Source of the DNA: a bacterium
GTDB lineage: Bacteria > Patescibacteriota > CPR2 > UBA1875 > CAIMLA01
Direction of reading: 5' to 3'
DNA length: 64,000 nt
Assembly: GCA_037129835.1 (NCBI GenBank)
Contig: JBAXUE010000005.1
Coordinates: 13,975 to 77,974, forward strand
Below, piece after piece: positions 10,750-62,856 of this stretch. A program made the translations under genes and the position numbers. The notes beneath the pieces are model-generated. The model was given only the letters and a program-made list of their open reading frames with translations, ran no database searches and was not told the origin of the DNA. Positions within the stretch are counted from its first letter, which is position 1, and each line of letters begins with the position of its first letter.

Positions 10750-11285
10750 CAAATATATAGTAAAATCCCATCTTGTGCGCGATAGCGCACGTATATATTT
10801 GGTGGGGTAGTTTTAACTACTAGAACGACTTAATTAATCTCGGTAACAGGGGTGGGCGCGCGCATGAAATGGGGGTGCGTGCTCATTTCTCCCTTGCGGA
10901 GATAATAGTTAAGTAAGTGGGGGTGAAAGGCCCTTCCCTGCCACCAATTTCCCTATCTGCCACTTTATGTGGTTTGTACCTGTCGCTTTTGCGACGAAAC
11001 TAGGCTTTCCTCGTCGAGAATCTCTCGACGAAAGAAAGAAGCCGTCTTCGGTTGAATGGTCGCAGGGCGATCAGAACCTAACTGACGGCGTCAGTAAGTC
11101 TCTTTCGGCTTTCGCCGGCCGCTTGAGAATCTGCTCTCTGTGTCGGCGGGTACCAGAACCCCTGGCACGTCAGTGCGCAAACGATGCAAGTATTTGCTCG
11201 CAAACCGCACACTGGCCCCAAAGGTCTTCGCTTGAGTAATCAGCGAAGGCCCGAGGGGCCTTTCGCATTAAAATATTAGATTTTT
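10750..11285. other. GC-rich hairpin-dense non-coding island; candidate structured ncRNA (unassigned)
   Basis: ~55% GC against ~35% background. Many perfect short hairpins (CGTCGAGA-atc-TCTCGACG, CTGACG-g-CGTCAG, GTCGC-tttt-GCGAC, CCAC-tttat-GTGG, GGCCC-gag-GGGCC). Only a 90-aa low-complexity ORF. No RNase P P4 or SRP consensus found. Confidence 0.3.
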
Positions 11286-11509
11286 GTCATCCTTGCGAAG
11301 GCGAGGATCTCTGAGGTAATAAGAATTAATTTGATTTTGATTATTTTCTATTATCTATTTTCTCTTGAAAAAAAATGGAGTTAAGTTCAAGAAAAATCGA
11401 ACTCCTTCGTCTCTGCACTGAATTTTCAAACAAATTGAATAATTCCTTACATTCGACGATAGTTGGGTGTGTGGCACCGAAGCGATTTTTCATAAAAAGT
11501 AAAAGAATA

Positions 11510-12223
11510 TTACCTAGGTTTTTTAATAGCCGTCGTGGTAAGATTCGGTCCTAATAAAAACCAAAATTTATGTTTAAATCCAGATGTTTGGATTTGAGTA
11601 AATCCTGTTTTCCTTAAGAGCTGTTTCATCTCTGTTTTGGTCCAAGCATGAAAGTACCTGGTAGTCGTAACGATCGTGTCTGATCTTTTCCAAGGCATAA
11701 AAAAATCTCCAAGTGGGAGCTTGTTATCTGATAAGAAAGAGGCCCGGATTTGTTTGAGATATTTCGATTTATTCCAAAAATACCAATTTGTAAAAAATAT
11801 TTGTCCTCCTGGTCTAAGTATTCTTGATATCTCTTTGAGAGCTTCTATTCGTAACTCCTTACTCGGAATGTGGTGAAGAGTAGCGATACAATAGATGACA
11901 TCAAATTGGCCGTCTTCAAAAGGAGTTTTGAGCAGATTGCCAGCCACAAAATCGCCTTTTGGATATTTATTTTTGGCGATTTTGATTAAGTCGGGGCTTA
12001 GATCAAGTCCTGTATATCGAGCACCCTTCGACGTAAGGAATTCGTAAAGACGTCCATTTCCACATCCAAGGTCTAGAACATTCATATTTTTGAGCGCAAA
12101 TGATTCCGTGGCTTTTTCTATATCCGCCCATACATAATAACGAGTCCTAGAAAAGTGTTCCGATATTAGGTTATAATCATCACGGGTCTTAGTTATTAAA
12201 TTGTGAGCATATTTTTTATTCAT
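11510..12223 (-). CDS. class I SAM-dependent methyltransferase
   Basis: VLDLGCGNGRL (motif I) and DVIYC (motif II). Confidence 0.75.
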   Translation of the reverse strand: MNKKYAHNLITKTRDDYNLISEHFSRTRYYVWADIEKATESFALKNMNVLDLGCGNGRLYEFLTSKGARYTGLDLSPDLIKIAKNKYPKGDFVAGNLLKTPFEDGQFDVIYCIATLHHIPSKELRIEALKEISRILRPGGQIFFTNWYFWNKSKYLKQIRASFLSDNKLPLGDFFMPWKRSDTIVTTTRYFHAWTKTEMKQLLRKTGFTQIQTSGFKHKFWFLLGPNLTTTAIKKPR

Positions 12224-13901
12224 GAATATTAAAGAAGAAATTATTTATAAATTATTGGAAGCAAAAGCTTGTACACGAGGCGATTTTACTCGTGTGGTCG
12301 CTTCGGTGTATAAAAATGATAACACAAGCGGGTACCATTCGAATATGGAATTACGTTCTACGTACCAAATGCTTGTTGATTCTGGCGATATCGAAATAAA
12401 CGAAAACCTAGAAAAACTACTGATCACCAAAAAGATGCGTTCGCTCTCTGGAGTCTCCGTTATCACAGTTCTAACGAAACCGTATCCTTGCCCGGGTAAC
12501 TGTATATATTGCCCTACTGTAAAGAATGTTCCAAAGAGCTATTTGCCAGATGAGCCGGCAGTAATGAGGGCAATTCTCAATGATTATGACCCCAAGAAAC
12601 AAGTAGAAACTAGGATGGAATCCCTGGTCGGGCAAGGCCATCCTGTTGAGAAGGTGGAGTTAATCATAATAGGCGGTACTTTTTCACATTTACCCAAATC
12701 TTATCAGGAAGAGTTTGCGAAAAGTTGCTTTGATGCGCTAAACGGAAGCGTGTCAAAAAATTTGGTGGAGGCCAAAAAGTTAAATGAATTATCTATATCT
12801 CGATGTGTTGGCTTAACATTGGAAACCAGGCCTGACCATATTACAAAAGAAGAGGTGAAATGGTTTCGATATCTGGGCGCTACCAGAGTTGAGTTAGGTG
12901 TCCAAACTATCTATAACAATATTCTGCAGTTAAATAATCGTGGTGAAAAAATAGAAGACACTGTTCGAGCGACGAAACTGTTAAAAGACGCTGGATTTAA
13001 AATTTGTTATCACCTGATGCCAAATCTTTATGGCTCAGATTTGAAGAAAGATAAGCAAATGTTTGTTGAAATTTTCAACAATTCAGATTTTTGTCCAGAC
13101 TACATCAAAATATATCCCTGTATGGTAATTAATGGCACTGAACTATATAAACTTTGGCAAGAAGGAAAATATACATCATATACAGATGAAGAGTTATCAG
13201 AATTAATTTGCGATATCAAAAGAGAAGTACCTTATTGGATTAGGATTATGAGAACTATCCGTGATATTCCTGCGGGTAATATAGAATCAGGCTCTAAGGT
13301 GTCCAATATGCGCCAAAACATCCTTAAACAGGCAGAGGATGAGGGCTGGAAATGTCATTGTATTCGCTGTCGTGAAATTGGCGCAGGTCCGGCTTATTCT
13401 TCTTCGTCATCCTCATTCGAGCCTGAGCGAAGAGGTTCTCAGGCCTCAGAGCCGAATGGCCTGGTCACAAACCCAGGGATCTCTGACGGTCCATCCGAAG
13501 GAGATCTTCACCTTCGTAAGGATGACAAACCGATTATGTTTACAGACAAATACGATGCCAGTGAGGGAACAGAATACTTCTTAAGTTTCGAAGATGAAAA
13601 AAGAGAAAACCTTTATTCCTTACTCAGATTGAGATTAACGAACAACCAAACTATTGATGCTATTAGAAACTGCGCGATTATTCGAGAAGTACATACATAT
13701 GGTAAGGAAGTTGAGATTGGCAAAAAGGGGGACAATCAACACAAAGGATATGGCAGAAGGTTGATTGAAGAGGCTGAGAAGATTGCTAAATCTAATGAAT
13801 ACAAACAGATAGCGGTAATATCGGGGATCGGTGCCCGCGACTATTATCGCAAATTTGGTTATGAAGTTGTAGGCGAATACATGGTTAAAGAGTTGACATA
13901 G
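12222..13901 (+). CDS. Elp3-like radical SAM / GNAT acetyltransferase (tRNA wobble-uridine modification family)
   Basis: CPGNCIYCP radical-SAM cysteine triad, CHCIRCREIG, YDASEGTEYFLSFED and QHKGYGRRLIEEAE GNAT motif. Carries an in-frame ~120-bp GC-rich element (13405..13527). Confidence 0.8.
   Translation: MNIKEEIIYKLLEAKACTRGDFTRVVASVYKNDNTSGYHSNMELRSTYQMLVDSGDIEINENLEKLLITKKMRSLSGVSVITVLTKPYPCPGNCIYCPTVKNVPKSYLPDEPAVMRAILNDYDPKKQVETRMESLVGQGHPVEKVELIIIGGTFSHLPKSYQEEFAKSCFDALNGSVSKNLVEAKKLNELSISRCVGLTLETRPDHITKEEVKWFRYLGATRVELGVQTIYNNILQLNNRGEKIEDTVRATKLLKDAGFKICYHLMPNLYGSDLKKDKQMFVEIFNNSDFCPDYIKIYPCMVINGTELYKLWQEGKYTSYTDEELSELICDIKREVPYWIRIMRTIRDIPAGNIESGSKVSNMRQNILKQAEDEGWKCHCIRCREIGAGPAYSSSSSSFEPERRGSQASEPNGLVTNPGISDGPSEGDLHLRKDDKPIMFTDKYDASEGTEYFLSFEDEKRENLYSLLRLRLTNNQTIDAIRNCAIIREVHTYGKEVEIGKKGDNQHKGYGRRLIEEAEKIAKSNEYKQIAVISGIGARDYYRKFGYEVVGEYMVKELT
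13405..13527. mobile_element. RPE-like palindromic element inserted in-frame in the Elp3-like gene
   Basis: GTCATCC...CTGGTCACAAACCCAGGGATCTCT...TTCGTAAGGATGAC with inverted termini. GC-rich, encodes an S/G/P-rich peptide. Near-identical copy inside the AlkD-like gene. Confidence 0.5.
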
Positions 13902-13986
13902 CCTAAAAATATGTTAAAATAATCATCGAGTGATTCTAATCGGAATCAACTGGTAACAAACCGCCTATTATAGGGAGGTAAACCCA

Positions 13987-14331
13987 ATGGGTTTCCTAGA
14001 TAGTATTCTCGAAGTCGTCAAGAAGGCAGCAGTTGCAGCCATAACTCCGATCGTTGAGATTAACGTTTTGAAGGAGGACAGCGCATATGTAGCTATCTAT
14101 ACGACGGTATTGCCGACGTCAGCTTTCGGGCACGAGTGCTACGTTATCCGTCAAGGAAACGCTGCAATCACTATTGCTGGCATGTCCCGCAATGCACAAG
14201 TTCGTCTCGAGGCAAAGGTTCGCGAGACGTTTCGCAACACCCCGGAACCCGGCCTTATGGCTTTTCTGGAGGAGATTGTTTCCACAATGAAAGAGCTCGC
14301 CAATGGCGGACGTCTCTCTGGAGCTATCTAA
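13987..14331 (+). CDS. hypothetical protein (GC-rich)
   Basis: GGGAGG RBS. ~52% GC. No motifs. Confidence 0.45.
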   Translation: MGFLDSILEVVKKAAVAAITPIVEINVLKEDSAYVAIYTTVLPTSAFGHECYVIRQGNAAITIAGMSRNAQVRLEAKVRETFRNTPEPGLMAFLEEIVSTMKELANGGRLSGAI

Positions 14332-14336
14332 TACGG

Positions 14337-14390
14337 GCCCACACCCAGCACTGCTTTGGCAGTCTGCTCCGTGTGGGCTTTCTGCTTTTT
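14337..14390 (+). terminator. terminator-like hairpin
   Basis: GCCCACAC...GTGTGGGC stem followed by TTTCTGCTTTTT. Confidence 0.45.
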
Positions 14391-14462
14391 CAGACTCGAC
14401 GTAATTGTGAAATTATGATATAATTTTGCAGTTACATTGAGTTATTCTTCGAGTTTAGGAGA

Positions 14463-14490
14463 AGTTCTCACTAAACGTTCGAACAATAAC
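14463..14490 (-). promoter_or_regulatory. AGTTCTCAC-TAAAC-GTTCGAACAATAAC motif copy (reverse orientation), 20 nt upstream of typA
   Basis: Reverse complement reads ATTGTTCGAAC-GTTTA-GTGAGAACT, the same family as 2031/2343. Confidence 0.45.
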
Positions 14491-14510
14491 TTTTTATTTT
14501 GGAGAAAACT

Positions 14511-16328: not shown

Positions 16329-16369
16329 TACTAACTTAACACGTTAAGCCCATTACAAACTTTATTTCC

Positions 16370-16398
16370 TTGACAAGGGTATTAAGTGTTATTAAGCT
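16370..16398 (+). promoter_or_regulatory. candidate promoter TTGACA-N17-TAAGCT
   Basis: Shares ...GTTATTAAGCTTA... with the promoter of the paralogue at 17767. Confidence 0.35.
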
Positions 16399-16440
16399 TA
16401 GACTAATAACCCTCGTACTTAGTGATTTTAAAGGAGGAAA

Positions 16441-17688
16441 ATGGCTACTGAAGAAGATAAAGGAATTAAACCGCTAGAGGCTGTAGAAACAACTGATAAT
16501 ATGGAGTTCGCCCCAGCCAAAAAAGAAAAACTCAAAATACCCAAGAACTTATTTATACTGCTTCTAGTATGTGTCATCACAATACCAGGAGCATATTTAC
16601 TTTATAGATCATTTGCTTCAGTAACTCGGACGTTGGTTTGGAGCGACGAATTTGACGGTACTGCATTAAATTTAACTAATTGGAGAATGACAGCTCCTTG
16701 GGGAAATGTCGTCAATCCAAATGCAAAAGAACTAGAACACTATTATCCTAAAAATGTAACAGTTAGCGACAGTAACTTAAAATTTAATACAACTAACCTC
16801 GGAACAGATATTACTTATCCTTATGAATCAGGGGTAGTCACAACTAATTCCAAGTTCGGATATGGATACATCGAAATGAGAGCAAAGCTCCCAAAAGGAC
16901 AAGGAATCTGGCCGGCTCTATGGATGATTAATTTCGAAGACACTCACGAAATAGATATTTTCGAGATGCTTGGGAACGAACCAAATAAAGTATATATGAC
17001 ATATCATAATACCAATCAAGAAGTTTACCAATCTGAATATATTGGACCAGATTTTTCTGCTGACTATCATATTTTTGCGGTAGACTGGCAACCAACTTCA
17101 ATCACTTGGTATATAGATGGAGTCCAGAGAGGTCAATATACTGGGGCCATCAAGCCTGACCCTTTGTTTATTTGTGCAAATACTGCAGTTGGAGGTCTTT
17201 GGCCTGGTTCTCCAGATAGTACGACAGTATTCCCACAAAATTATTACATTGATTATATTAGATATTATCAACAGACTGATGCTGTCATCCCTACCCCCAC
17301 TTCTACACCTTCACCAACCGTTGCTCCCACGGCTACTCCGACCCCTACTCCTACACCAACCCCTACTATTACTCCTATTCCTACGCCCACTAAAGTTCTA
17401 ACACCCACCCCTACAATTACCCCAATGGCCGTTTCCATCTCAAGTCCCTTGAGCGGAGGAAAAGTAAGTACTACATCTCAGATTATTAAAGCAACCGTAA
17501 CAGGGCCTTATGCTGTCAAATCAGTAGTGTTCTATATAGACGGAGTAGTTAAGTCAACTGTAACTAAGTCCCCATATTCTTATACTTGGAAAACAACATC
17601 CGTTACTAGGGGAACCCATATTATCAAGGTCCAAGCTACTGATTCATTAGGCCGAACAGCCTACAAGCAGATAATAGTAACCAGATAA
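16441..17688 (+). CDS. glycoside hydrolase family 16 (beta-glucanase/laminarinase-like), membrane-anchored, PT-linker + Ig-like C-terminal domain
   Basis: HEIDIFEM matches the GH16 E-x-D-x-x-E catalytic motif. N-terminal signal-anchor. PTPTPTP linker. Confidence 0.75.
   Translation: MATEEDKGIKPLEAVETTDNMEFAPAKKEKLKIPKNLFILLLVCVITIPGAYLLYRSFASVTRTLVWSDEFDGTALNLTNWRMTAPWGNVVNPNAKELEHYYPKNVTVSDSNLKFNTTNLGTDITYPYESGVVTTNSKFGYGYIEMRAKLPKGQGIWPALWMINFEDTHEIDIFEMLGNEPNKVYMTYHNTNQEVYQSEYIGPDFSADYHIFAVDWQPTSITWYIDGVQRGQYTGAIKPDPLFICANTAVGGLWPGSPDSTTVFPQNYYIDYIRYYQQTDAVIPTPTSTPSPTVAPTATPTPTPTPTPTITPIPTPTKVLTPTPTITPMAVSISSPLSGGKVSTTSQIIKATVTGPYAVKSVVFYIDGVVKSTVTKSPYSYTWKTTSVTRGTHIIKVQATDSLGRTAYKQIIVTR
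17309..17681 (+). repeat. 373-bp direct repeat copy 1 (PT-linker + Ig-like domain coding)
   Basis: Identical by eye to 19979..20351. Confidence 0.85.
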
Positions 17689-17835: not shown

Positions 17836-20358
17836 ATGGCTACCAAAGAAGAAAAGGTAATTAAACCACCAAAGTCTATAGAGACAACCGACAAGATGCT
17901 CGTCTCTCCTGTCAAAAAGAAACTAATGATACCCAAAAACTTTTTAATACTGCTTCTAGTATGTGTCATCACAATACCAGGAGCATATCTACTTTATAGA
18001 TCATTTGCCTCGGTTGGGACACAAAGTACGACAGCTACTAATACGGTCGATAGTATCAATTACCCCAGAACGGTAGAATATTGGAAGGACTATACTGCAG
18101 CAGAAAGGGCCAAGGTAGACCTGCTTATTATGGAACCATATCAATATCCAACCGAAACAAATGCTGTTAGAGCGCTTAATCCAGCTACTAAGATAATGCT
18201 TTATGAAGACATTGTAGAGTTTGATTATAATGCCAATGTAGCACCAACAGAATATGTAAATGAGCGTCTAAACGAAGGTTCTACTGATTGGATATTGACT
18301 CAGGTGGGGACTACCTTATCGGCAAGTGTTGATGCCACAACGACCACTATCCCTGTGACCGAGACAACGAAACTTAACGGTACGACTACCGTAGCTTTGT
18401 TCAAAATTGGTGAGCTTGCATTAGTCGATCACGAATTAATGAAAATCACAGCAGTTGGCACTAATACAATAACAGTCCAAAGAGGAGTTGTTAAAAAGGC
18501 GGCTGTACATGCAGCTGGTGTTCGAACAGCGGCCTGTGTAACTTTTTGGCCAGGCAGTGTAGTAACCGATATGACCAAAGCTAGTTTAGCTGTAGATCTC
18601 GGTACCGGCTTCGGACCAGAAACATATTACCAGTGGCGGGCAAGAGTGACGGGGACTAGAGCGGTTACAGAAAAATGGGACGGTGTTTATATGGATAGGG
18701 CAGATGGCAATGAGTCGTGGGTAATATCAACTGGTTATGCTAGAAGCTTTGATCAGGCTCGTACCAATACTTTTGTATCAGACAAATATGCTGCTTTTAA
18801 CACCTCTTGGAATGATGGTGAGATGCTTTATTATAAAGCCCTTAGAGCCAAGGTTGGAGTAGATATGCCGATTTTTGGTAACAGGGCTATCACAGGCTCC
18901 GCGGATATAAACGGTAGTTTAATGGAGGGATTTCCAGATAGTCAGATAAGTTCAAAGTCATGGCATGATATGATTGTTGGTCCCAACCTAGTCGCGGGTA
19001 GAGATGTTACTGGGACTTCTGTAATAGCTCCATATTTTAATTGGGTGAAAAATTCAAGAGATCCAAAATTGAATATAATCAATACTTACGAATATGAAGA
19101 CGGTACCAGCACTACAAATCCTTTTATTGATCCTAATTTTAAACGAAATTATCAGAAAATGAGATTTGGGCTGACAACTACCCTTTTGGGAAATGGCTAC
19201 TATGGTCACTTCTCGGGGATAACGGCTAAAAGCAACGGCTTTGCTTGGTTTGATGAATATGACAATGCTGGAGCGGGCAAAGGGTATCTTGGCCAGCCGA
19301 TTGGCGATGCTTATCAAGTTATCCCATCTCTTACGACTCCAGATCTAGTTAACGGAACTGGCACTTTTAATACACAAGCGCAACTTGATAGTTGGGAGCT
19401 GTATAACCGAGCTGGCTATGCATCGACAAAAACCCTCGATTCCGGCGCGGCTAAAATAAATATTACCGCAGCGGCTGGAAGCTTTAACGGAGTAGGTTTT
19501 TCATACCAGCCTTTTCCCATTACTGTTGGAGTAGAATATACTTTAACGTTTAGAGCAAAGGCTGATAAAGTTGTTAATATATATGCTTCTGCAGAGAAGA
19601 ATAATCCCTGGGGCTTCTTAGCAGAGTATGATGATCTTGGTCTTACTACAGATTGGCAGACTTTCAATATCCCTGTTAAGGCAATTGATTCAAGCACCAC
19701 TGGGACTATGAATTTTCTGCTTGGTGGAACCACTGGCACTATCTGGCTCGACGACGTCAAGCTTCAGGAAGGAAACCGTGAAGTCTACCGTCGTGACTTT
19801 ACTAACGGCATCTCTCTAGTAAATCCCACCGAATCTGCCGTCACTATACCTCTCGGTGGTAATTTCCGTAAAATCAAAGGGACTCAAGTTCCATCTATTA
19901 ATGACGGTTCTATAGTATCGTCAGTTACTCTTCAACCAAAAGATGGGATAATCCTTCTGCGAGAATCTGTCCCTATATCTTCACCAACCGTTGCTCCCAC
20001 GGCTACTCCGACCCCTACTCCTACACCAACCCCTACTATTACTCCTATTCCTACGCCCACTAAAGTTCTAACACCCACCCCTACAATTACCCCAATGGCC
20101 GTTTCCATCTCAAGTCCCTTGAGCGGAGGAAAAGTAAGTACTACATCTCAGATTATTAAAGCAACCGTAACAGGGCCTTATGCTGTCAAATCAGTAGTGT
20201 TCTATATAGACGGAGTAGTTAAGTCAACTGTAACTAAGTCCCCATATTCTTATACTTGGAAAACAACATCCGTTACTAGGGGAACCCATATTATCAAGGT
20301 CCAAGCTACTGATTCATTAGGCCGAACAGCCTACAAGCAGATAATAGTAACGAAGTAG
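17836..20358 (+). CDS. membrane-anchored putative glycoside hydrolase with CBM4/9-like carbohydrate-binding module, PT-linker and Ig-like C-terminus
   Basis: N-terminus nearly identical to the GH16 paralogue. Central TIM-barrel-like region (WDGVYMDRADG). CBM-like segment (WQTFNIPVKA...GTIWLDDVKLQEG). Hydrolase family not assignable by eye. Confidence 0.55.
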   Translation: MATKEEKVIKPPKSIETTDKMLVSPVKKKLMIPKNFLILLLVCVITIPGAYLLYRSFASVGTQSTTATNTVDSINYPRTVEYWKDYTAAERAKVDLLIMEPYQYPTETNAVRALNPATKIMLYEDIVEFDYNANVAPTEYVNERLNEGSTDWILTQVGTTLSASVDATTTTIPVTETTKLNGTTTVALFKIGELALVDHELMKITAVGTNTITVQRGVVKKAAVHAAGVRTAACVTFWPGSVVTDMTKASLAVDLGTGFGPETYYQWRARVTGTRAVTEKWDGVYMDRADGNESWVISTGYARSFDQARTNTFVSDKYAAFNTSWNDGEMLYYKALRAKVGVDMPIFGNRAITGSADINGSLMEGFPDSQISSKSWHDMIVGPNLVAGRDVTGTSVIAPYFNWVKNSRDPKLNIINTYEYEDGTSTTNPFIDPNFKRNYQKMRFGLTTTLLGNGYYGHFSGITAKSNGFAWFDEYDNAGAGKGYLGQPIGDAYQVIPSLTTPDLVNGTGTFNTQAQLDSWELYNRAGYASTKTLDSGAAKINITAAAGSFNGVGFSYQPFPITVGVEYTLTFRAKADKVVNIYASAEKNNPWGFLAEYDDLGLTTDWQTFNIPVKAIDSSTTGTMNFLLGGTTGTIWLDDVKLQEGNREVYRRDFTNGISLVNPTESAVTIPLGGNFRKIKGTQVPSINDGSIVSSVTLQPKDGIILLRESVPISSPTVAPTATPTPTPTPTPTITPIPTPTKVLTPTPTITPMAVSISSPLSGGKVSTTSQIIKATVTGPYAVKSVVFYIDGVVKSTVTKSPYSYTWKTTSVTRGTHIIKVQATDSLGRTAYKQIIVTK
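19979..20351 (+). repeat. 373-bp direct repeat copy 2
   Basis: Identical to 17309..17681. Confidence 0.85.
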
Positions 20359-20766: not shown

Positions 20767-20782
20767 AGGGAAGGTACATACG

Positions 20783-27257: not shown

Positions 27258-28123
27258 CTTATGACGAAGTTATGCTTCGATTAGACAAACTAGCTAGTCA
27301 TGACCCAAAGGATTTGGCGGGCATGGCTCGTTTTGGCATCAACGTTGATAAAGCTTGGGTAATTAGTATGCCGAAGTTAAGAATATTAGCGAAAGAGATA
27401 CTCTCACATTACAAAATACAAAAAATTGATAATAATGTGTCATCCCTGGTCGCAAACCCAGGGATCTCTCCCGTACCATCCGACTTATCCAGCGTAGCTT
27501 TAGCGAAGATGAAAAGAGATCCTCACTTTCGTAAGGATGACACAATAAAGATCCAAGAGCTGCATACCCTCGCTCTAGAAGTTTGGGATTCCGGTATTCA
27601 CGAAGCTAGAATATTAGCTGGTTTGATTGATGATCCAAAGATGGTAACTGGGGAACAAATGGAGAAGTGGGTTCTAGGCTTTGATAGCTGGGATGTCTGC
27701 GACCAGACCTGCGGTAATTTGTTTGATAGGACAGAATTTGCCATAAAAAAAGCACACGAATGGTCAAAAAGATCCGAAGAATTTGTAAAAAGAGCAGGTT
27801 TTGTCTTAATGGCTGGACTTGCCGTTCACGACAAAAAGCTTGAAGACAACGTCTTTATAGAATTTTTAGATATTATAAAACGTGAGTCTGGTGATAAGCG
27901 TAATTTTGTACGCAAGGCTGTGAATTGGGCTCTACGGAGTATTGGTAAATCGAGGAACAAATATTTGTATGAAAAATCCATAAGGGTAGCTGAGGAGATC
28001 CTCGGTCAAGCCAAGGATGACAGCTTGGTATGGAGTGGCACAGAAATAAAGGCTATGAATTTCATCGCCGGTGATGCAAAAAGAGAACTAGAAAAAGATT
28101 ATATAAAGAATCGTTTTCTATAA
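27254..28123 (+). CDS. DNA alkylation repair enzyme (AlkD/AlkC-like HEAT-repeat glycosylase family)
   Basis: HEARILAG, WDVCDQ and VRKAVNWALRS motifs resemble the DNA_alkylation family. Carries an in-frame GC-rich element at 27437..27542. Confidence 0.55.
   Translation: MTYDEVMLRLDKLASHDPKDLAGMARFGINVDKAWVISMPKLRILAKEILSHYKIQKIDNNVSSLVANPGISPVPSDLSSVALAKMKRDPHFRKDDTIKIQELHTLALEVWDSGIHEARILAGLIDDPKMVTGEQMEKWVLGFDSWDVCDQTCGNLFDRTEFAIKKAHEWSKRSEEFVKRAGFVLMAGLAVHDKKLEDNVFIEFLDIIKRESGDKRNFVRKAVNWALRSIGKSRNKYLYEKSIRVAEEILGQAKDDSLVWSGTEIKAMNFIAGDAKRELEKDYIKNRFL
27437..27542. mobile_element. RPE-like palindromic element inserted in-frame in the AlkD-like gene
   Basis: TGTCATCC-CTGGTCGCAAACCCAGGGATCTCT...TTCGTAAGGATGACA. 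The core is near-identical to the Elp3 copy. Both are translated in the same frame (LVxNPGIS...H-RKDD). Confidence 0.5.
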
Positions 28124-40379: not shown

Positions 40380-40390
40380 CTGGAGACCCT

Positions 40391-40472
40391 GTCATTCCTG
40401 GTCGCAAGCCAGGAATCCACCCATATAAATATTTTATTTGAAATAGATTCCTGGCTTGCGACCAGGAATGAC
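40391..40472. repeat. perfect 27-bp inverted repeat pair (GTCATTCCTGGTCGCAAGCCAGGAATC ... GATTCCTGGCTTGCGACCAGGAATGAC) in the pheS-pheT spacer
   Basis: Direct reading. Each arm is itself a hairpin. Same GTCATYCC family as the in-gene elements. Confidence 0.6.
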
Positions 40473-40487
40473 AAAGAGGAAAAAGAA

Positions 40488-44697: not shown

Positions 44698-44779
44698 GAT
44701 AAGTAATTATATATGCATACCATTAGGTATTATTATTGTCATATCTTTACAGGATCTGCTCTCCTAGGGCCCAATAATT

Positions 44780-44880
44780 TATTGTTTGAAGTCCCGCAAC
44801 TGCCGGATCGAGAACTACTTCCCGCGTCATTTCTCAATCTAGTTGAGGACAGGCTCTAAACTAGATTTAGCTTGCCTGCG
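44780..44880. repeat. repeat unit R1 (ATTGTTTGAAGTCCCGCAACTGCCGGATCGAGAACTAC...CCTCAATCTAGTTGAGG...)
   Basis: About 90% identical to R2 at 45328. Confidence 0.6.
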
Positions 44881-45327
44881 GTAAGCAGGGATCCATTTCG
44901 TAATACTTTGATACTTTTATCTATAGTTATTCTGTATTTACCACTTTTTTAGTAAAAGTGGTGCAAAAAGCCCGAACTGTCGGATTCTCACAGAGTCAGT
45001 AACTCACTTATTCATGTTTAGTAAAATTAACTCCCCGGCTATTGCCGGTTCAAACAAAATTATTACCAAAATATTTATAAGTAAGCTACTTCGCTTCTCG
45101 AACCGATTGTTCGGATAGAAACCGCGTAAACTCCCACGAATTCGGGTATCGTGCGTCGTCTATAACCCCATTGTCATCCCTGGACGACTCGTCCATCGTA
45201 GCCTTGGTGAAGTTGGAAGTGGAGAGATCTAACACAATATTTACCGTCATCCTTGGCTTGCCCGAGGATCTCTCGCACCTCCCCGTCATTTCAAACTCAA
45301 TTTGGAGTCCGTATCCACACCTTTTTT

Positions 45328-45418
45328 ATTGTTCGAAGTCCGGCAACTGCCGGATAGAGAACTACTCCCCGCGTCATTCCTCAATCTAGTTGAGGACAGG
45401 CTCTAAACTTGATTTAGG
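45328..45418. repeat. repeat unit R2 (ATTGTTCGAAGTCCGGCAACTGCCGGATAGAGAACTAC...CCTCAATCTAGTTGAGGACAGGCTCTAAACT)
   Basis: Contains two hairpins (TCCGGCA-ac-TGCCGGA; CCTCAA-tctag-TTGAGG). Confidence 0.6.
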
Positions 45419-45428
45419 ATCTCTTTCA

Positions 45429-45455
45429 TATCGTTCGAATGCCAATGAGAACTAT
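45429..45455. repeat. ATCGTTCGAA-TGCCAA-TGAGAACTATA motif copy
   Basis: Same ATYGTTCGAA...GAGAACTA family. Confidence 0.5.
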
Positions 45456-45742
45456 AGATACACTTACTTATTTCCGTTCATTTCTTCTTGATAAGAAACG
45501 AACCAAACCTGCCTGCCGCAGGCGGGGAATCAAGAAAAATCCTCCTACGCACCAGAGCTTCGGACGGACAGGTCGAACTCCTTCTACTCGGCTCGTAATT
45601 TTGTTACCAATAATTACTCGACCTCGTAGATAGTCGGAGCTGTGAGCCCAAAGCGATTTTTCGTTAGGGATATACACTATCAAACCATATTTTCGAAACC
45701 CCCACGATCACCCCCTGGCAGTAAACAGAGGATCTCCTTTTT

Positions 45743-45780
45743 ATTGTTCGAAGTCCGGCGACTGGCGGAAGGAGAACTAA
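45743..45780. repeat. repeat unit R3 (partial): ATTGTTCGAAGTCCGGCGACTGGCGGAAGGAGAACTAA
   Basis: Third copy of the R1/R2 5' module. Confidence 0.55.
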
Positions 45781-45900
45781 TTCCCCACCTTTTCCCTTTC
45801 AGACAAGCTGTAAAAAGTAGATATATTATTAAAGGGAGTTTGCAATATCGACAAAAAATTTGCAACAATGGTAAACCTTGTAAAATGCGATGTTTTGTAC

Positions 45901-45929
45901 TTGATTAAGCTTCAAAAAGTATATAAAAT
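45901..45929 (+). promoter_or_regulatory. candidate promoter TTGATT-N17-TAAAAT for the giant gene
   Basis: Same -10 hexamer and spacing as the pyrG promoter. Confidence 0.4.
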
Positions 45930-45942
45930 GTATATATAACTT

Positions 45943-56104: not shown

Positions 56105-58585
56105 TTGTTAGTTGATATACTTCTTCTTTTATTGATTGGGACAATTGCTGTTACTGTTATAATAGTTTCTTTTGTAGTATTTAGACGTTCTAGATATTGG
56201 AAAAAACAGATGGAGCGTTCGTTGAAAATAGTCCCTTTGCTTATTTCAATTCCGCGTGATTCTGGTTCAAAAGACTATGAGGCGAAACAACGCGACGATA
56301 GAGAAGCAATGCACGAGGTGATATCGGTTGCCGAGAACTTCTATGCTAATATCACTACTTTATATGATAAATATAAGATTGTATCAAACTTTATGGTTGG
56401 AGCGCCACATATTACTTTAGAAATCGTAGCTAAAGAGCATGAGATATTCTTTTATATAGCGGTTCCTTATCCATATTTGGATATGGTGGAAAAAGCTATA
56501 AGTTCACAATATCCGGATTCATATATTGAAAGAGCTGCAGAACATAATATATTTAATAAAGATTGGGGAATCGATAAGGTATACGGGGGGGAAATACGCT
56601 CGACGAATAGTTTTTATTATCCCATCAGAACTTATCAGGAGCTAGACTCGGAGCCTCTAGAAAGTATTACAAACGCCATGAGTAAGCTAGAAAAAGATGA
56701 GGGCGCTTGTTTGCAAATTCTATTTCGTCCAGTAAGCCCTAGTATTACAAAAAAGGTTTCAAATATTTCAAGGAAAATGCAGTATGGTAAAAAAACAAAT
56801 TTTATTGATGAAATATTGAATGCAACTCTTTATAAAACGTCGCAGGAAGTGGCAGCAAAAGAGAAACCAGAGCTAACGCCAATGGAAGAAGAGGGGGTAA
56901 AAGCTATAGAAAAATGGGCCTCAAAACATATTTTTGAAGCTCAAATACGTGTTATCGCCTCATCATCTTCGTCAAGTAGATCTAAAGAAATTGTCACAAA
57001 TATTTATTCTACTTTCCATCAGTTTACCAACCAGAGTTTTAATGGTTTTACTTTCGTTCCGGCAAGAAACATAGAAGAACTTGCAACCGACTATATCTTT
57101 CGGTTTTTTGTTCACAGAATAGTCAGCTGGAATACGCAATTTCGGTTTTTCCGAGGTGCTAATGTCTGTTTGAACACCGAAGAGCTAGCATCCATCTATC
57201 ATCTACCAAACTTTTTAGTTAGAACGCCTGGAATAAGGTGGCTAGCTTCAAAAAAATCAGAACCACCAACGTTTATTTCACCCGATGGAGTTATAATCGG
57301 TCGCAGCAATTTTAGGGGAGAAGAGAAAGTCATTAGAATTTCTGAAAATGACAGAAGACGCCATGTTTACATATTAGGGCAGACCGGTACTGGCAAAACC
57401 ACATCTATGATTAACATGATTTTGTCTGACATTAAAGAAGGTAAGGGAGTTTGTTATATTGACCCACATGGTCAAGATCTTGTAGAACATATTTTGCCAT
57501 ATATTCCTAAAGAAAGAGCAGACGATGTTATTGTGTTTGCAGCTGCCGACACCGAAAGGCCGATAGGTATCAACCTTTTTACTGCGAAAACTCAGGAACA
57601 AAAAGACTATGTAATTCAAGAGTTGATAGGGATGTTTTACCGACTCTACGACCCTGGTCATCAAGGTATAGTAGGCCCTCGTTTTGAACATTGGTTTCGC
57701 AATGCAGCACTTACGTTAATGGCAGGTCCAACGCCTGGAACTTTTATAGAGGTGCCGAGAATATTTACAGATGATGAATTTTTAGCCGATAAACTTCAAT
57801 ATGTTACTGACCCGGTGGTAAGAAGCTTTTTTTTGAAGGAAATGGCAGAAACAAGTGACTATCATAAATCTGAAATGCTAGGTTGGTTTGTAGGTAAATG
57901 GAGTGCATTTATGACGAATATGACAATGAGAAATATTATAGGTCAAACAGAGTCAGCTTTTGATATTCGTCAGATTATGGATGACCAAAAGATTCTTCTT
58001 ATTAATCTTGCAAAAGGTCAGGTCGGTGAAGAAAATATGAAACTTTTGGGAATGATGCTAATTGCCAAAATTCAGATGTCGGCAATGTCGCGAGTTGATA
58101 TGCCAGAAGATCAAAGAAAAGATTTCTATCTATATGTGGATGAATTTCAAAATTTCGCAACAGATTCCTTTAGTTCGATACTGTCTGAGGCAAGAAAGTT
58201 CCGACTTTGTTTGACGGTTGGTAATCAGTTTATTGGCCAATTAACAGACGATATTAAGGAAGCCGTTTTTGGTAATGTCGGTTCACTAATGTGTTTTCGT
58301 ATCGGTAACGATGATGCCGAATATATGGCACATCAATTCGAGCCAGTTTTTAATGAACAAGATCTGATTAATTTGGAAAACTACAATAGCGTTACTAAAA
58401 TTTTAGCCAATAGTACCCCCACTAGACCGTTTAGTATGCAAGGCTATAATTACCCACCCGGAGCTAGCAAAGAGATTGGCGATGCTATAATTCAGTTATC
58501 GCGCTTGAAATATGGGCGTCCACGCGATATAGTAGATATAGAAATCCAAGAAAGAATGAGCATTCGAGAATCAGGAGGGAAATGA
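56105..58585 (+). CDS. membrane-anchored P-loop ATPase of the FtsK-HerA superfamily, VirB4/TraC-like (type IV secretion-type) architecture
   Basis: N-terminal TM, ~400-aa N-domain, then HVYILGQTGTGKTT (Walker A) followed by CYIDPHGQD, and FYLYVDEFQNF (Walker B) about 215 aa later. The spacing and position (Walker A near residue 430 of 826) resemble VirB4. Confidence 0.55.
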   Translation: MLVDILLLLLIGTIAVTVIIVSFVVFRRSRYWKKQMERSLKIVPLLISIPRDSGSKDYEAKQRDDREAMHEVISVAENFYANITTLYDKYKIVSNFMVGAPHITLEIVAKEHEIFFYIAVPYPYLDMVEKAISSQYPDSYIERAAEHNIFNKDWGIDKVYGGEIRSTNSFYYPIRTYQELDSEPLESITNAMSKLEKDEGACLQILFRPVSPSITKKVSNISRKMQYGKKTNFIDEILNATLYKTSQEVAAKEKPELTPMEEEGVKAIEKWASKHIFEAQIRVIASSSSSSRSKEIVTNIYSTFHQFTNQSFNGFTFVPARNIEELATDYIFRFFVHRIVSWNTQFRFFRGANVCLNTEELASIYHLPNFLVRTPGIRWLASKKSEPPTFISPDGVIIGRSNFRGEEKVIRISENDRRRHVYILGQTGTGKTTSMINMILSDIKEGKGVCYIDPHGQDLVEHILPYIPKERADDVIVFAAADTERPIGINLFTAKTQEQKDYVIQELIGMFYRLYDPGHQGIVGPRFEHWFRNAALTLMAGPTPGTFIEVPRIFTDDEFLADKLQYVTDPVVRSFFLKEMAETSDYHKSEMLGWFVGKWSAFMTNMTMRNIIGQTESAFDIRQIMDDQKILLINLAKGQVGEENMKLLGMMLIAKIQMSAMSRVDMPEDQRKDFYLYVDEFQNFATDSFSSILSEARKFRLCLTVGNQFIGQLTDDIKEAVFGNVGSLMCFRIGNDDAEYMAHQFEPVFNEQDLINLENYNSVTKILANSTPTRPFSMQGYNYPPGASKEIGDAIIQLSRLKYGRPRDIVDIEIQERMSIRESGGK

Positions 58586-60585
58586 CAAAGGAAGAAGCTA
58601 AATACCGAAAATCGCAGCAGTTATATCTAGACGCGGGGCGCAGATATACTGATTTGTTATTAAGGGTCTCGAAAAGCAATAGAAAATTATTACAGATTGC
58701 TACAGAAATTAAATCAATCGGTGATAATATCCATGTTTTTGATAGTCCTGTAATTACAAAAGCTTATAATGAAATTATCTCAAATTCACGAATATCGCCT
58801 GAATATCATGGTCTTGTAAAAGAGTTGGAAAAAGTAAAATCTGACCTCGATATTGCGAATTATCAACTTGTGAAAGACCGATTAAAATATTTTTTAGCAA
58901 AGTCCGGCGTTCCTTATACGCAAAATAATTATTCTCCAGAAAAACTTTTTTCTGTTGTTAATAATCCTAATTCTGGATTTCTTGAGAAGTTATCAGTCGC
59001 GGCTCCATATGTAGAGGATGAGATATCTAGGTTTGTTGACTTTATAGATAGCAAAGAAATTCAGATTAAAAATGGCAAAATATCGGCAGCTACTCGAGAC
59101 GCAAAAAATTATCTTCGTAATTTGGAATTAACCTTAATGACGCGGGTAAATAACTCTTTTATATCTGAGAAGAAGATCGATATTAAGGATTTGTATTCTG
59201 AAAAGTTGAATAACGGGCAAAAAGATTTATTTATAGATATGGCCACAGTAGGTGATCAGGAACATATCAGAGAGCTCGAAAGACGGCTATTATCTGGAGA
59301 TGTTACTATTGAAAAAGATCAGATATCACCATTAACGACCAAGGGGAAGCGTTACCTTGATTTACTGGATGAAGAATTTACAAGTCTTTTAGAAAAAAAG
59401 CTGGAAGAAAAACTGATAAATAATAATAATTTATCAAGAAGTGGCAACAAAGTTTTGAACGATATATCCCGTTTAGTAGATGAAAAAGAAGAAATAAATC
59501 TTAAGCATAAAAATTTCAGTAAACGTATTCCGCATGCAAAAGCGTATAGAATGCTTTCACAAAAATATGATAATGACTTAAATGGGATCAAGCTAGATAA
59601 GCAGAACATCCTAAACCAGATAGACGCAATATCTTTATCGGCCATCTCAATTAAAAAGAAACTGTTACTAACGACAACGAGACAGGATGTGTCTATAAAG
59701 GATTCTATATTGCTTGCTTCAGCTTTAGCTTATCTCGGGATTTATGAAAACCAATTATCACATGATGTTTCTGTGTTGGCGGGTAAGCTTGACATAGACG
59801 GTGATTTTGAATCAGATAGATTCAAAGATATTAAGTTTGAAAAGTCAGAAAAAAGCTTTGATTCTCTGTTTGATTCTACCTTGAGTAAAGAGCTAAAGAA
59901 AAAAACAGCTTTTCAAAAAAATCTTGATTTAGTTATACATGAATATGTTTATACTTCTAAGGAATATAAAGACTTTGAAGCTCTTTGTAGCAAGCAAAAT
60001 TTATTGAAAATGAAATTAGCCGATATCGCCATAAATCAGGACTCTTTATATTCAAACTTCTCCCTTTCCGAGAGCCTTTTAGTAGAAATAATTGAGCTTG
60101 AAACAAAGAAAAAGTTACTTGTTACAGAATTACTGCACCAAGCGGACTTGGCACATAAAAAGATTTGGCTCGATAAAATTAAAAAAGATAATAACACATA
60201 TATTGATACGAACTTCGATGGGCATAACATTTTATCGAAAGATTATGCAAGAAAAATCAATGAACAGTTATTTGAAAGATTTGAACTGGAAATAAAAAAA
60301 GTTGCCGAAAAACATCATAAATTACAGCAAAAACACCCGGATGAATTTTATGATTATCTCAAAAAATCTTCACAGCGAGTTAAGAACGGTGAGGATGTCT
60401 CTAAAGTATCAAAGGATATGCTCAATTCATGGAATTGCTATAACGATGATTATGTCATGCTATTAGACGAGATCAATACTGACATGAAAAGGTTAGAAAG
60501 TTACCTGGGTACGTTTGGTGAAAAGTCGCGAAAAGAGATTGAAAAAAATCTAATTTTAGATATTCGCAAAAGAGTAAGAATGTAA
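58582..60585 (+). CDS. hypothetical K/E-rich coiled-coil protein (667 aa)
   Basis: Start overlaps the ATPase stop (ATGA). No TM, no enzymatic motifs. Confidence 0.55.
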   Translation: MTKEEAKYRKSQQLYLDAGRRYTDLLLRVSKSNRKLLQIATEIKSIGDNIHVFDSPVITKAYNEIISNSRISPEYHGLVKELEKVKSDLDIANYQLVKDRLKYFLAKSGVPYTQNNYSPEKLFSVVNNPNSGFLEKLSVAAPYVEDEISRFVDFIDSKEIQIKNGKISAATRDAKNYLRNLELTLMTRVNNSFISEKKIDIKDLYSEKLNNGQKDLFIDMATVGDQEHIRELERRLLSGDVTIEKDQISPLTTKGKRYLDLLDEEFTSLLEKKLEEKLINNNNLSRSGNKVLNDISRLVDEKEEINLKHKNFSKRIPHAKAYRMLSQKYDNDLNGIKLDKQNILNQIDAISLSAISIKKKLLLTTTRQDVSIKDSILLASALAYLGIYENQLSHDVSVLAGKLDIDGDFESDRFKDIKFEKSEKSFDSLFDSTLSKELKKKTAFQKNLDLVIHEYVYTSKEYKDFEALCSKQNLLKMKLADIAINQDSLYSNFSLSESLLVEIIELETKKKLLVTELLHQADLAHKKIWLDKIKKDNNTYIDTNFDGHNILSKDYARKINEQLFERFELEIKKVAEKHHKLQQKHPDEFYDYLKKSSQRVKNGEDVSKVSKDMLNSWNCYNDDYVMLLDEINTDMKRLESYLGTFGEKSRKEIEKNLILDIRKRVRM

Positions 60586-60737
60586 GCTAAAATTATTTGC
60601 TTTTGTGCTTGAATTGAGCTAGAATAATAGTATCAAAAAGAGTGCATTTTTATATATTTAATATCACATCATTTTAGAATCTTGAGAGCGATAATATTGC
60701 TCAAGGAATTCTTAAATTGTGGCTAAGAAAGAAGGCT

Positions 60738-62810
60738 ATGGTAGATAAAACAAAGACGGTAAAATACGATGCTTCATCAATCCAAGTTCTCGAAGGACTT
60801 CAGGCTGTTCGTAAGCGACCTGGAATGTATATCGGTGGTACTGGCAAAGAAGGTCTCCATCATCTTATCTGGGAGATCGTCGACAATGCTATTGATGAGG
60901 CAATGGCTGGTAGATGTGACAACATAGGTGTAATTCTTCATGCCGATGGCTCAGTTTCAGTTTCAGACAATGGCGCAGGTATACCAGTTGATAAACATAA
61001 ACAGACAGGTAAAAGTGCTTTAGAAACAGTTATGACCATACTTCATGCAGGCGGTAAATTTGGCGGCGGCGGCTACAAAGTATCTGGTGGTTTACACGGT
61101 GTCGGAGTTTCTGTAGTAAATGCACTTTCTACATACGTCAAGGCAGAAGTGCGTAAAAGTGGTAAGATTTGGGTACAAGAATATAAAGATGGTGGTAAGC
61201 CGGCTGGTCCGCTTAGAAGTATTGGTGAGACAGCAGAGACCGGGACTATTATCACTTTTATACCAGACCCAGAAATTTTTGAAACTGTAGATTTTGACTA
61301 CAAGGTAGTTTTAGACAGGATTCGCCAGCAGGCTTATCTTACAAAGGGTGTAAAAATAAAACTTACAGACGAGAGAATAAGCGAGAGTTATGCATTTTAT
61401 TTTGAAGGTGGTATCAGATCATATGTAGACCATCTTAATCGAACGAAATCAGCTATCAACGAGCCGATATTTTATGTTGATAAGTCGCTAGACAATGTTA
61501 ATGTAGAGCTGGCTGTTCAGTATACAGATGGTTATACAGACAACGTCCAGACATTTGCTAATAACATTCATACTCCAGAGGGTGGGACGCACCTTACGGG
61601 CTTTAGAACTTCTTTGACGCGCACCCTGAATGATTATGCTAGGAAAAATTCGCTTCTTAAAGACAATGAAAGTAACCTTACGGGTGATGACGTGCGCGAA
61701 GGATTGACAGCAGTTATCTCAGTCAAGCTTGCTGACCCACAATTTGAAGGGCAGACAAAGGCAAAACTCGGAAATCCAGAAATATCAAATATCGTTCAAA
61801 CTGTTTTCACTGAGTATTTTTCATATTATTTGGATGAGAATCCCAATGAAGCTAAGAAAATTATAAATAAATGCTCGCTCTCTGCACGTGCCAGACTGGC
61901 TGCTAGGGCTGCTAGAGATACAGTTATCCGTAAGGGCGTTCTCGAGGGGATGACCTTACCAGGCAAGCTCGCTGATTGTTCTAGTAAAAACGCTGAGATA
62001 TCAGAGATATATATCGTAGAGGGAGATTCAGCTGGAGGCTCGGCAAAACAAGGTCGTGATCGCCGCTTTCAGGCCATATTACCACTACGTGGGAAAATCC
62101 TTAATGTAGAACGTGCCCGTATGGATCGGATGCTTTCTTCTGACGAGGTAAAAGCGCTTATTATTGCCCTTGGTACTGGTATTGGTGAACAGTATGATCC
62201 ATCAAAGCTACGTTATCATCGAGTAATAATAATGACAGATGCCGATGTAGACGGAGCACATATCCGTGCTTTACTTTTGACGCTATTTTATCGTCACTTC
62301 CCAGAGCTTATTTTAAACGGAAATATTTACATCGCTCAGCCTCCCCTGTACAAGGTTCAAAAAGGAAAACAAAAATTTTGGGCTCACGATGAAGCAGAAA
62401 AAGACGAAATACTCGCAGAAATGCTTCAGAATATGAAAACAAAGCCTAGCAAAACAGAAGACGGACTCTTTGAAATTAAGGAGCTTGGTGCAGATACTCA
62501 AGAACCTGAAGACAGTGAAGAGTCGGCAGAAAACGAAGATTTGTCAGAATCTCAAGGTGATGATAATTCAGAATCGGAAATCAAAATTCCTGGGGTTTCC
62601 ATACAGCGCTACAAGGGTCTTGGTGAAATGAATCCAGAACAACTATGGGAGACAACAATGGATCCAGAAAACAGGATTCTGCTTCAAGTTACCGCTGAAG
62701 ATGCGGAAAAGGCAGACGAAATTTTCACTATTCTAATGGGGGACGAAGTCGAACCACGGAAGCGCTTTATACAGACACATGCAGCAAACGTAAAAAATCT
62801 GGATATTTAG
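60738..62810 (+). CDS. gyrB: DNA gyrase subunit B
   Basis: [29 protein letters not shown] ATPase, Toprim EGDSAGG and [10 protein letters not shown] motifs. Possible TTG start at 60717. Acidic low-complexity insert near the C-terminus. Confidence 0.9.
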
Positions 62811-62832
62811 AGAAGATTATCGCTTCCTTTCT

Positions 62833-62856
62833 GTCATTCCCGCGAAAGCGGGAATC
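62833..62856. repeat. GTCATTCC-CGCGAAAGCG-GGAATC hairpin element downstream of gyrB
   Basis: ATTCCC-N8-GGGAAT palindrome with GTCATTCC head. Same family as 40391. May act as a terminator, although no T-run follows. Confidence 0.45.

Follow-up and report, generated by a model that had tools for sequence, protein, structure and literature searches.

NTS-like hairpin repeats with a GTCAT head in a Patescibacteria contig and their possible link to GIY-YIG nucleases

Background

The closest described relatives of the repeats considered here come from Neisseria, where the Neisseria Transformation Sequence (NTS), CGTCATTCCCGCGMAVGCGGGAATCYRG, which includes dRS3, is bound by SsnA, a 94-aa single-domain GIY-YIG protein that recognises it as single-stranded DNA (ssDNA) only, on one strand only, and cleaves it a few bases upstream (Chenal et al. 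2025, PMC11893778). For binding, the C that follows the palindrome matters most, and for cleavage the three nucleotides ahead of the palindrome; SsnA is inactive on RNA. The ssnA genes typically have the motif on either side (NTS-ssnA-NTS) and Ssn-related motifs (SRM) are found across phyla, with Rickettsia among the SRM-rich genera; in Neisseria NTS cluster near surface-protein genes, 2% of them are intragenic in N. meningitidis, and dRS3 is said to be targeted by a phage recombinase (PMC11893778). Here a family of hairpin repeats headed by GTCAT is described from a 64,000-nucleotide stretch of contig JBAXUE010000005.1 (positions 13,975 to 77,974 of the contig; hereafter the window), in which a preliminary description had seen a dispersed, intergenic family resembling repetitive extragenic palindromic (REP) sequences or the miniature transposable elements with inverted repeats called MITEs.

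The repeat family itself is real. The reading favoured here, with moderate confidence, is that its members are REP-like hairpin repeats of the NTS/SRM (dRS3) type that act as ssDNA, are linked to GIY-YIG nucleases and are not terminators. The evidence consists of an oriented family that conserves its structure, insertion, loss and replacement of copies in relatives, survival of copies in frame in protein loops, a match to NTS and a GIY-YIG gene amid hairpins. The hairpin type is already known from NTS and SRM; what is noteworthy is the host in the Patescibacteria, the frequent in-frame genic copies, the recurrent doublet unit and the rapid turnover. Repeats whose main known home is Neisseria, and whose function was not explained until 2025, are found here in the tiny genome of an episymbiont that is, by its PheS relatives, a Saccharibacterium.

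Design of the repeat family

The window holds about 13 hairpins of one design, counting degenerate and long-stem variants (Table 1). The doublets at 13406-13526, 27439-27541 and 40391-40472 contribute two each and the other copies lie at 11286, 28021, 44826, 45173, 45246, 45373 and 62833; a doubtful further copy at 45285 stands outside the count. The order of the unit is (T)GTC, a stem of 8-9 bp starting AT(C/T)C, a loop of 4-8 nt that is frequently GAAA or GAAG, a return arm ending G(G/A)AT, and a C that is mostly followed by TCT. All four groups of hairpins quoted in the preliminary description were found again, and Pfam bore out its assignment of pheS and gyrB. Its coordinates are mostly right, with one-base slips (the first copy, 11286-11312, is 27 nt long and the degenerate copy begins at 45173, not 45174), and the inverted pair in the pheS-pheT spacer, given there as a perfect 27-bp repeat, is perfect but has arms of 28 nt (40390-40417 and 40446-40473, 100% complementary and 28 nt apart). 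The 8-mer GTCATYCC, which it took for the common head, is enriched (13 in the window against 2.87 expected, a number that 0 of 100 shuffles reached) but is a poor descriptor, roughly half of the 13 matches being due to chance; copies 11286 and 45246 read GTCATCCT, and the true head is therefore GTCATYC. The full motif GTCATYC-N10-40-GRATCY is not of random frequency, with nine occurrences in the window against 0.57 expected, and no shuffle out of 100 reached nine. An intergenic position is true of part of the copies only, since five of the ~13 lie within open reading frames (ORFs) and every one of the five is read in frame. Missing from its list were the intragenic copies at 13406-13526, 27439-27541 and 27994-28021, the long variants at 44826 and 45373, and the possible copy at 45285.

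A motif-blind scan of the window yielded 124 strand-specific hairpins with a stem of at least 8 bp. GTC directly 5' and C directly 3' of the stem were found together in nine of the 124 (0.29 expected), and eight of these nine are members of the family. Folding with DNA parameters gave -3.8 to -9.0 kcal/mol, with the stem beginning exactly at the base after GTC. In an alignment of 22 copies with an 8-bp stem and a 4-nt loop, taken from the window and from other contigs, GTCAT and the post-stem AT-C are invariant. Compensatory change is seen at five of the eight stem pairs, in which both partners vary; the share of paired cells is 98.9%, and in shuffles it is 87%. These figures are biased towards pairing because a hairpin finder chose the set, and they come from copies related by descent. 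In the commonest subfamily, stem position 6 is a T.G pair as read on the GTCAT strand, and the pair beside it alternates between G-C and A-T. G.T pairs outnumber A.C pairs on the GTCAT strand by 27 to 1, a count inflated both by shared descent and by the metagenome search pattern, which itself imposes the T.G pair; biased as it is, this excess would fit strand-specific recognition of ssDNA and hints at folding of one of the two strands. No Rfam family was recorded in the window at gathering thresholds, the only match, near 11300-11520, being a chance one.

Match to NTS, SRM and dRS3

Positions 62831-62858 agree with the NTS consensus at 26 of 28 positions, and the dRS3 form ATTCCC-N8-GGGAAT is exact at 62836-62855. 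A likeness to dRS3 had been proposed before as an analogy only, which is too weak a wording for this copy; the other copies, with ATCC or ATTCC stems, do not fit the dRS3 form. The published SRM pattern, HGTCWYN(0-2)YYVSBRHN(0-5)WNVSBRGN(0-2)RNCYNB, has its sole match in the window at 62832-62859 (1 against 0.18 expected) and, catching one copy, is unfit for counting this family. Copies of the form GTCATCC...GGATCTCT miss it at interior positions, yet retain GTC, the AT...AT ends of the palindrome and the following C. Related loci and metagenome contigs that were compared with the window are numbered within L003-L265 in what follows. The 27-mer of the 62833 copy recurs identically at L210:12208. 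Among the matches listed, unrelated contigs are rich in its 24-mer class, and Neisseria-like arrays are among them. When viral contigs were scanned with a pattern that fits three of the window copies, the matches listed were mainly GTCATTCCCGCGAAGGCGGGAATC(CAG) and GTCATTCCCACGAAAGTGGGAATC, some of them in dense arrays.

The likeness to NTS and SRM extends beyond the single near-exact copy. In both the hairpin is oriented, GTCAT standing in front of the palindrome and C behind it, and has many copies per genome, and in both a small single-domain GIY-YIG gene stands amid inverted hairpin repeats. Clusters by large surface-protein genes are a further common feature, the hairpins of the window and of L210 being clustered upstream of giant surface-type genes. 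The differences are that most window copies fail the SRM pattern, that the host is a Patescibacterium, and that the local GIY-YIG protein looks UPF0213-like and that its gene is flanked by another hairpin family.

Filled, empty and swapped sites in relatives

By PheS, the nearest relatives within the GTDB genome set are metagenome-assembled genomes (MAGs) of uncultured Candidatus Saccharibacteria and Patescibacteria, at 70-73% identity, and the loci from these relatives have gene order in common with the window; on the strength of PheS the host is read as belonging to Candidatus Saccharibacteria. Occupancy by hairpins was found to be polymorphic among relatives at pheS-pheT, AlkD and Elp3, with empty sites at all three, and the dispersed REP/MITE-like character claimed for the family is upheld, doublets included. 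In five relatives (L129-L133) pheS and pheT overlap by TAATG with no spacer, whereas the window has a spacer of 108 nt containing the 82-nt doublet, and L128 has a different doublet at this site. The AlkD-like protein is 289 aa long in the window against 224-235 aa in insert-free orthologues. Many close AlkD orthologues have other hairpin-derived peptides in the same two loops (ISTEVEKS..RSLGYARDD, VTLSGTKGPG..SSCGQNDG, VIPAKAGI and EILKQVQDD), and the 103-nt doublet of the window is also present in a 94%-identical JGI relative (L003/L004). The window, L208 and L261 each have an insert of their own, unrelated to the other two, in the Elp3 linker after CIRCREIGA, and L005 and L006 are without one. 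Each of the inserts in Elp3 (aa 395-437) and AlkD (aa 62-98 and 248-256) lies between conserved blocks and is absent in orthologues.

Strain L261, which elsewhere matches the window over more than 200 nt at 100% identity, has a different Elp3 insert between common flanks. The linker of L261 holds a wholly different insert of ~125 nt (L261:2200-2480 against window positions 13330-13600), its left edge GGTCC and its right edge ATGAC being common to both. To the right of the 11286 hairpin, at a distance of roughly 30-60 nt, synteny between L261 and the window breaks off; the break lies between that hairpin and ~11340. The distribution of copies is patchy, with 0 in ~100 kb of L006 and L129-L133 and 8 in 12.7 kb of L208, where the sequence of the pheS-pheT arm recurs (L208:8458). 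No target-site duplications are visible on comparing filled and empty sites at pheS-pheT, or in the Elp3 insert swap. The evidence for mobility is made up of the empty and filled orthologous sites at the three loci, the insert swapped between identical flanks and one nested insertion; the first two, with the different hairpins found from lineage to lineage in one protein loop, are clean natural experiments.

Doublets

The GTCAT hairpins come as singletons or as head-out inverted pairs (TGTCAT...ATGACA). One doublet is recurrent and consists of GTCATCCCTGGTSRCAAACCCAGGGATCTCT and the reverse complement of GTCATCCTTRCGAAWGYGAGGATCTC, linked by a spacer of the form ..CCCTCCGAAG. This unit of 72-74 nt was found in at least six other metagenome contigs (L225, L236, L237, L242, L246 and L248) and occurs twice in the window, in AlkD with a longer spacer (103 nt) and in Elp3, where a 47-nt foreign hairpin is nested right behind GTCATCC. 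With the nested insert removed, the Elp3 doublet is the 74-nt unit of L225, L236, L242 and L248.

A GIY-YIG nuclease gene among hairpins

A gene for a single-domain GIY-YIG nuclease lies near the left end of the window and most plausibly starts at the GTG at 2045, giving 85 aa. Judged by its sequence, the product is a candidate hairpin-binding ssDNA nuclease. The closest solved structures are the UPF0213 proteins 1zg2 and 1ywl. Identity to 1zg2 is 40% (E = 6e-13, 52 bits) and to NTS-flanked proteobacterial Ssn-like GIY-YIG ORFs 33% (~30 bits), and because of these values the protein is not placeable in the Ssn clade (cd10448). A second hairpin family stands on either side of the gene in inverted copies, and the same family brackets GIY-YIG homologues, often abutting start or stop codons, in L208, L210, L211, L262/L263, L264 and L265. 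Inverted hairpin repeats bracket GIY-YIG homologues in seven independent Patescibacteria contigs, a layout like NTS-ssnA-NTS; the bracketed homologues are ~62-82% identical among the best matches and stand in very different contigs. An isolated GTCAT-type head adjoins the right end of the cassette (Table 1) and has an equivalent, GTCATCCTGAAA, at the right end of the cassette in L208. Gene order in L208 is similar to that of the window (GIY-YIG, IMS polymerase, methyltransferase, Elp3), with extra genes between these in the window. In L262, a Levybacteria MAG, and there only, a 588-bp GIY-YIG cassette (L262:2860-3447) lies inside a perfect 15-nt inverted repeat, TGTCATTGCGAGCGA / TCGCTCGCAATGACA, which looks like either an element of the insertion sequence (IS) kind with GTCAT-type ends or a cassette put into a GTCAT hairpin's loop. 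Among the scanned ORFs of the window (at least 100 aa) and the called genes of related loci, Pfam showed no transposase or integrase family.

Proposed mechanism

A link between GIY-YIG enzymes and the GTCAT hairpins is plausible from these sequences. The GTCAT strand would fold on transiently single-stranded DNA, either the lagging-strand template or incoming transforming DNA, and a small single-domain GIY-YIG nuclease would bind the folded hairpin and nick a few bases 5' of GTC, as SsnA of Neisseria does on the near-identical NTS. Break and repair at hairpins would then drive copying, replacement and recombination, and would account for the presence of hairpins at points of sequence replacement, their gain and loss between relatives and their nesting. 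The spreading unit would be the single hairpin or the 72-74 nt head-out doublet, and intragenic copies would persist only where they are in frame in surface loops or linkers. We infer the recognition of GTCAT hairpins by such an enzyme, the cleavage and the multiplication of copies; if any nuclease serves them, it could be that of the window or a paralogue from another part of the genome. Candidate substrates are GTCATCCTTGCGAAGGCGAGGATCTCT, GTCATTCCCGCGAAAGCGGGAATC, GTCATTCCCGCGAAAGCGGGAATCTAT and TTATTGTTCGAACGAAGTGAGAACTAAA. If the link holds, this would be a compact system in which to follow multiplication of ssDNA hairpin repeats, recombination and DNA uptake. Saccharibacteria are thought to be dependent on imported DNA and nucleotides, and any effect of the hairpins on how foreign DNA is taken up or integrated is a matter of speculation.

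Several points weigh against a link of this kind. Ssn proteins are not known to transpose anything, which leaves the multiplication step conjectural. The GIY-YIG protein of the window looks nearer to UPF0213 than to the NTS-flanked Ssn-like proteins, and its gene is flanked by the second hairpin family and not by GTCAT hairpins on both sides. Only one of the ~13 copies passes the published SRM pattern, and ~40% of the window copies are intragenic, in frame, against 2% of NTS in N. meningitidis. Hairpin-based criteria selected the copies behind both the G.T count and the covariation, and these copies have a common ancestry. No cd10448-like ORF was found in 425 kb of Patescibacteria contigs, a result that is uninformative as none of these is a whole genome.

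A bolder form of the proposal, which is unlikely as matters stand, would make UPF0213-like GIY-YIG nucleases and hairpins together an ssDNA 'cut and repair-copy' mobile system of the Patescibacteria. GTCAT hairpins and doublets would be non-autonomous derivatives of a cassette bounded by TGTCAT...ATGACA, such as that of L262, spreading into loops of essential proteins and being swapped between strains. If true, GIY-YIG enzymes would form a third class of mobilisers of REP-type repeats, beside Y1 transposases and DDE enzymes, and a mechanism would be at hand for in-frame insertions like the palindromic elements of Rickettsia.

Alternative explanations

The head-out doublets with their conserved spacer have the layout of REPINs (PMC3116915), and the hairpins bear a short conserved 5' motif, so that classical REP/REPIN sequences, moved by a Y1 (HUH) REP-associated tyrosine transposase (RAYT) encoded elsewhere, have to be considered, the GIY-YIG gene being then unrelated. 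The strand asymmetry of the stems would suit any hairpin-binding ssDNA enzyme, a RAYT included. The search for transposases described above found no Y1_Tnp family either, the head is GTC(AT) and not the GTAG of REP sequences, and one copy is a near-exact NTS, whose known partner is a GIY-YIG nuclease; mobilisation by a RAYT is held to be quite unlikely. A recombinase has also to be weighed, with the repeats as attachment or recombination sites of a site-specific recombinase or integrating element and their spread as a by-product. The use of dRS3 by a phage recombinase in Neisseria, the break of synteny beside the 11286 hairpin and the Elp3 cassette swapped between near-identical strains are all in keeping with this. 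The window yielded neither recombinase nor prophage genes, however, and neither the conserved hairpin with its compensatory changes nor the scatter of 72-74 nt doublets over many contigs would be explained; sites of this kind are held to be very improbable.

The preliminary description had suggested that the repeats act as transcription terminators or stabilise mRNA. Such elements, which as hairpins between cistrons would end transcription or serve in the protection or processing of mRNA, might be expected from the singletons, which have GTCAT mostly on the coding (+) strand (6 to 1), from the stable stems and frequent GAAA or GAAG loops, and from the tolerance of RNA for G.U pairs. Yet there is no T-run behind any copy, a terminator scan of 40000-46000 called none of the copies there, five copies are translated in frame, the doublets place one arm in the orientation that does not give G.U, and SsnA does not act on RNA. 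The sites are moreover empty in close relatives, including those in which pheS and pheT overlap, which argues that no conserved regulatory need is served. The suggested role is therefore not sustained: elements working at the level of RNA are very unlikely as the main explanation, though secondary effects on mRNA are possible. Intrinsic terminators, defined by a GC-rich hairpin and a direct T-run, are rejected, given the lack of that combination and the negative scan. Of these explanations the NTS/SRM-type ssDNA hairpin linked to GIY-YIG nucleases is the one preferred.

Comparison with other repeat systems

REP, BIME and REPIN sequences with their RAYT resemble the window repeats in being short imperfect palindromes that occur as singletons and as inverted doublets, the latter behaving as the replicating unit, and, on the reading favoured here, in their reliance on a single-copy enzyme that acts on ssDNA hairpins (PMC3116915, PMC3337134). 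They differ in that no RAYT was found in the window, in the head motif, and in being extragenic, whereas the window hairpins are also intragenic. The Rickettsia palindromic elements (RPE; PMC10969869) are likewise palindromic repeats lying in frame in unrelated housekeeping genes at tolerated positions; they measure ~100-150 bp and are Rickettsia-specific, whereas the units here are hairpins of 27-31 nt or doublets of 72-103 nt, and the likeness is one of layout. Whatever moves them, the window repeats inflate or alter predicted proteins (peptides VIPAKAGIQ and LRGNDE) and break assemblies of candidate-phyla genomes, and they matter for annotation on that account.

At 44.7-45.9 kb the window has several repeat families arranged in mosaic arrays, with dRS3-type hairpins as boundaries and with blocks exchanged between strains, as do the Neisseria intergenic mosaic elements (NIMEs); array-like NTS repeats among the viral-contig matches add to this comparison. 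Correia elements have terminal inverted repeats of 26 nt, TA duplications and promoters, none of which was seen in the window repeats. MITEs derived from an IS are marked by terminal inverted repeats and a target-site duplication; the doublets have inverted ends (TGTCAT...ATGACA), and no duplication is visible between the filled and the empty pheS-pheT site.

Table 1. Hairpin repeats and the GIY-YIG gene in the window (positions count from the first base of the window)
Feature	Position	Strand	Remarks
Single-domain GIY-YIG nuclease gene	2045..2302	+	85 aa from GTG start; mechanical ORF 1934-2302; Pfam PF01541, E = 1.4e-13
Second hairpin family, TTAT(T/C)GTTCGAAC-GAAG-TGAGAACTA (also TTATYGTTCGAAC-GAAG-TGAGAACTA)	1942..2368	both	brackets the GIY-YIG gene in inverted copies
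Second-family copies at the cassette	1942-1969, 1981-2009, 2029-2056, 2307-2334, 2341-2368	+, -, +, -, + (in that order)	
Isolated GTCATTCTGA head	2369..2378	-	adjoins right end of GIY-YIG cassette
Singleton GTCATCCTTGCGAAGGCGAGGATCTCT	11286..11312	+	8-bp stem with one T.G pair, GAAG loop; -5.4 kcal/mol; between convergent genes, sulfatase-like 8851-10734 and methyltransferase 11510-12223
Doublet in Elp3-like ORF	13406..13526	both arms	aa 395-437, in frame; head GTCATCC 13406-13412, nested 47-nt insert 13413-13459, type-A remainder 13460-13484 (+), spacer, type-B 13500-13526 (-)
Second family, extra copy	14461-14489	-	
103-nt doublet in AlkD-like ORF	27439..27541	both arms	type A 27439-27469 (+), type B 27515-27541 (-); aa 62-98, in frame; peptide VSSLVANPGIS...RDPHFRKDD
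Singleton GTCATCCTTGGCTTGACCGAGGATCTCC in AlkD-like ORF	27994..28021	-	aa 248-256, peptide EILGQAKDD
82-nt doublet, pheS-pheT spacer	40391..40472	both arms	two identical hairpins GTCATTCCTGGTCGCAAGCCAGGAATC, heads outward, AT-rich 28-nt spacer; -7.1 kcal/mol each
Second-family copies among GTCAT hairpins, upstream of 3222-aa fn3-rich ORF	44779-44818, 45326-45365, 45428-45455, 45741-45780	+	mosaic region 44779..45780
Long degenerate GTCATTTC-headed variant ending GGGATCC	44826..44893	+	within 93-nt repeat 44778-44870; weak fold
Degenerate copy GTCATCCCTGGACGACTCGTCCATCG	45173..45199	+	head retained, stem base lost
Singleton GTCATCCTTGGCTTGCCCGAGGATCTCT	45246..45273	+	96% complementary to 27995-28021
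Long-stem variant GTCATTCCTCAATCTAGTT...AACTTGATTTAGGATCTCT	45373..45425	+	within 93-nt repeat 45325-45417; homologous long hairpin in L220
NTS/dRS3-type singleton GTCATTCCCGCGAAAGCGGGAATCT	62833..62857	+	22 nt past gyrB stop codon; -9.0 kcal/mol, z = -5.2

Repeat mosaics and neighbouring genes

The 1.2 kb upstream of the 3222-aa fn3-rich ORF form a mosaic of GTCAT hairpins, a third repeat of ~150 nt and the second hairpin family, for which the fold of 45324-45366 comes to -8 kcal/mol. Mosaics upstream of giant genes are also found in L220 and L210, that of L220 being closely like the window's. The third repeat is bounded by GAAAAATCG...CGATTTTTC, lies at 11355-11495 and 45470-45662 of the window and on the reverse strand of L220 at ~6480-6660, and has no match in Rfam; its copy at 45.5 kb is broken by a hairpin remnant ending GGGGAATC. 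In L220 a second type of single-domain GIY-YIG gene stands on the reverse strand at 1603-1848, between the repeat mosaic and the giant ORF, and the corresponding 45786-45942 of the window is without a gene.

The giant-gene region (45943-55611 and 56105-60585) encodes the 3222-aa protein of fn3 and purple-acid-phosphatase-N repeats, followed by a TrwB/VirD4-like ATPase of 826 aa and by an ORF of 667 aa that has no Pfam match. Together they may represent a surface or secretion module beside the densest repeat cluster.

Head-to-tail tandem arrays of GTCATCCTTGCG...GAGGATCTC hairpins were seen at L255:2053-2216, with a period of 31 nt, and in L224, L228 and L244; these arrays indicate that the same hairpin subfamily exists outside the Patescibacteria and is able to form arrays. 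In TARA contigs of 50-56% GC, GTCATCCTTGCG...GAGGATCTC hairpins are spaced roughly 90 nt or more apart. Elsewhere in the window two adjacent glycoside-hydrolase-like genes have at their 3' ends a direct repeat of 300 nt with 99% identity (17303-17602 and 19973-20272), which overlaps the Big_7 (bacterial Ig) domains that they encode and suggests recent gene conversion or duplication.

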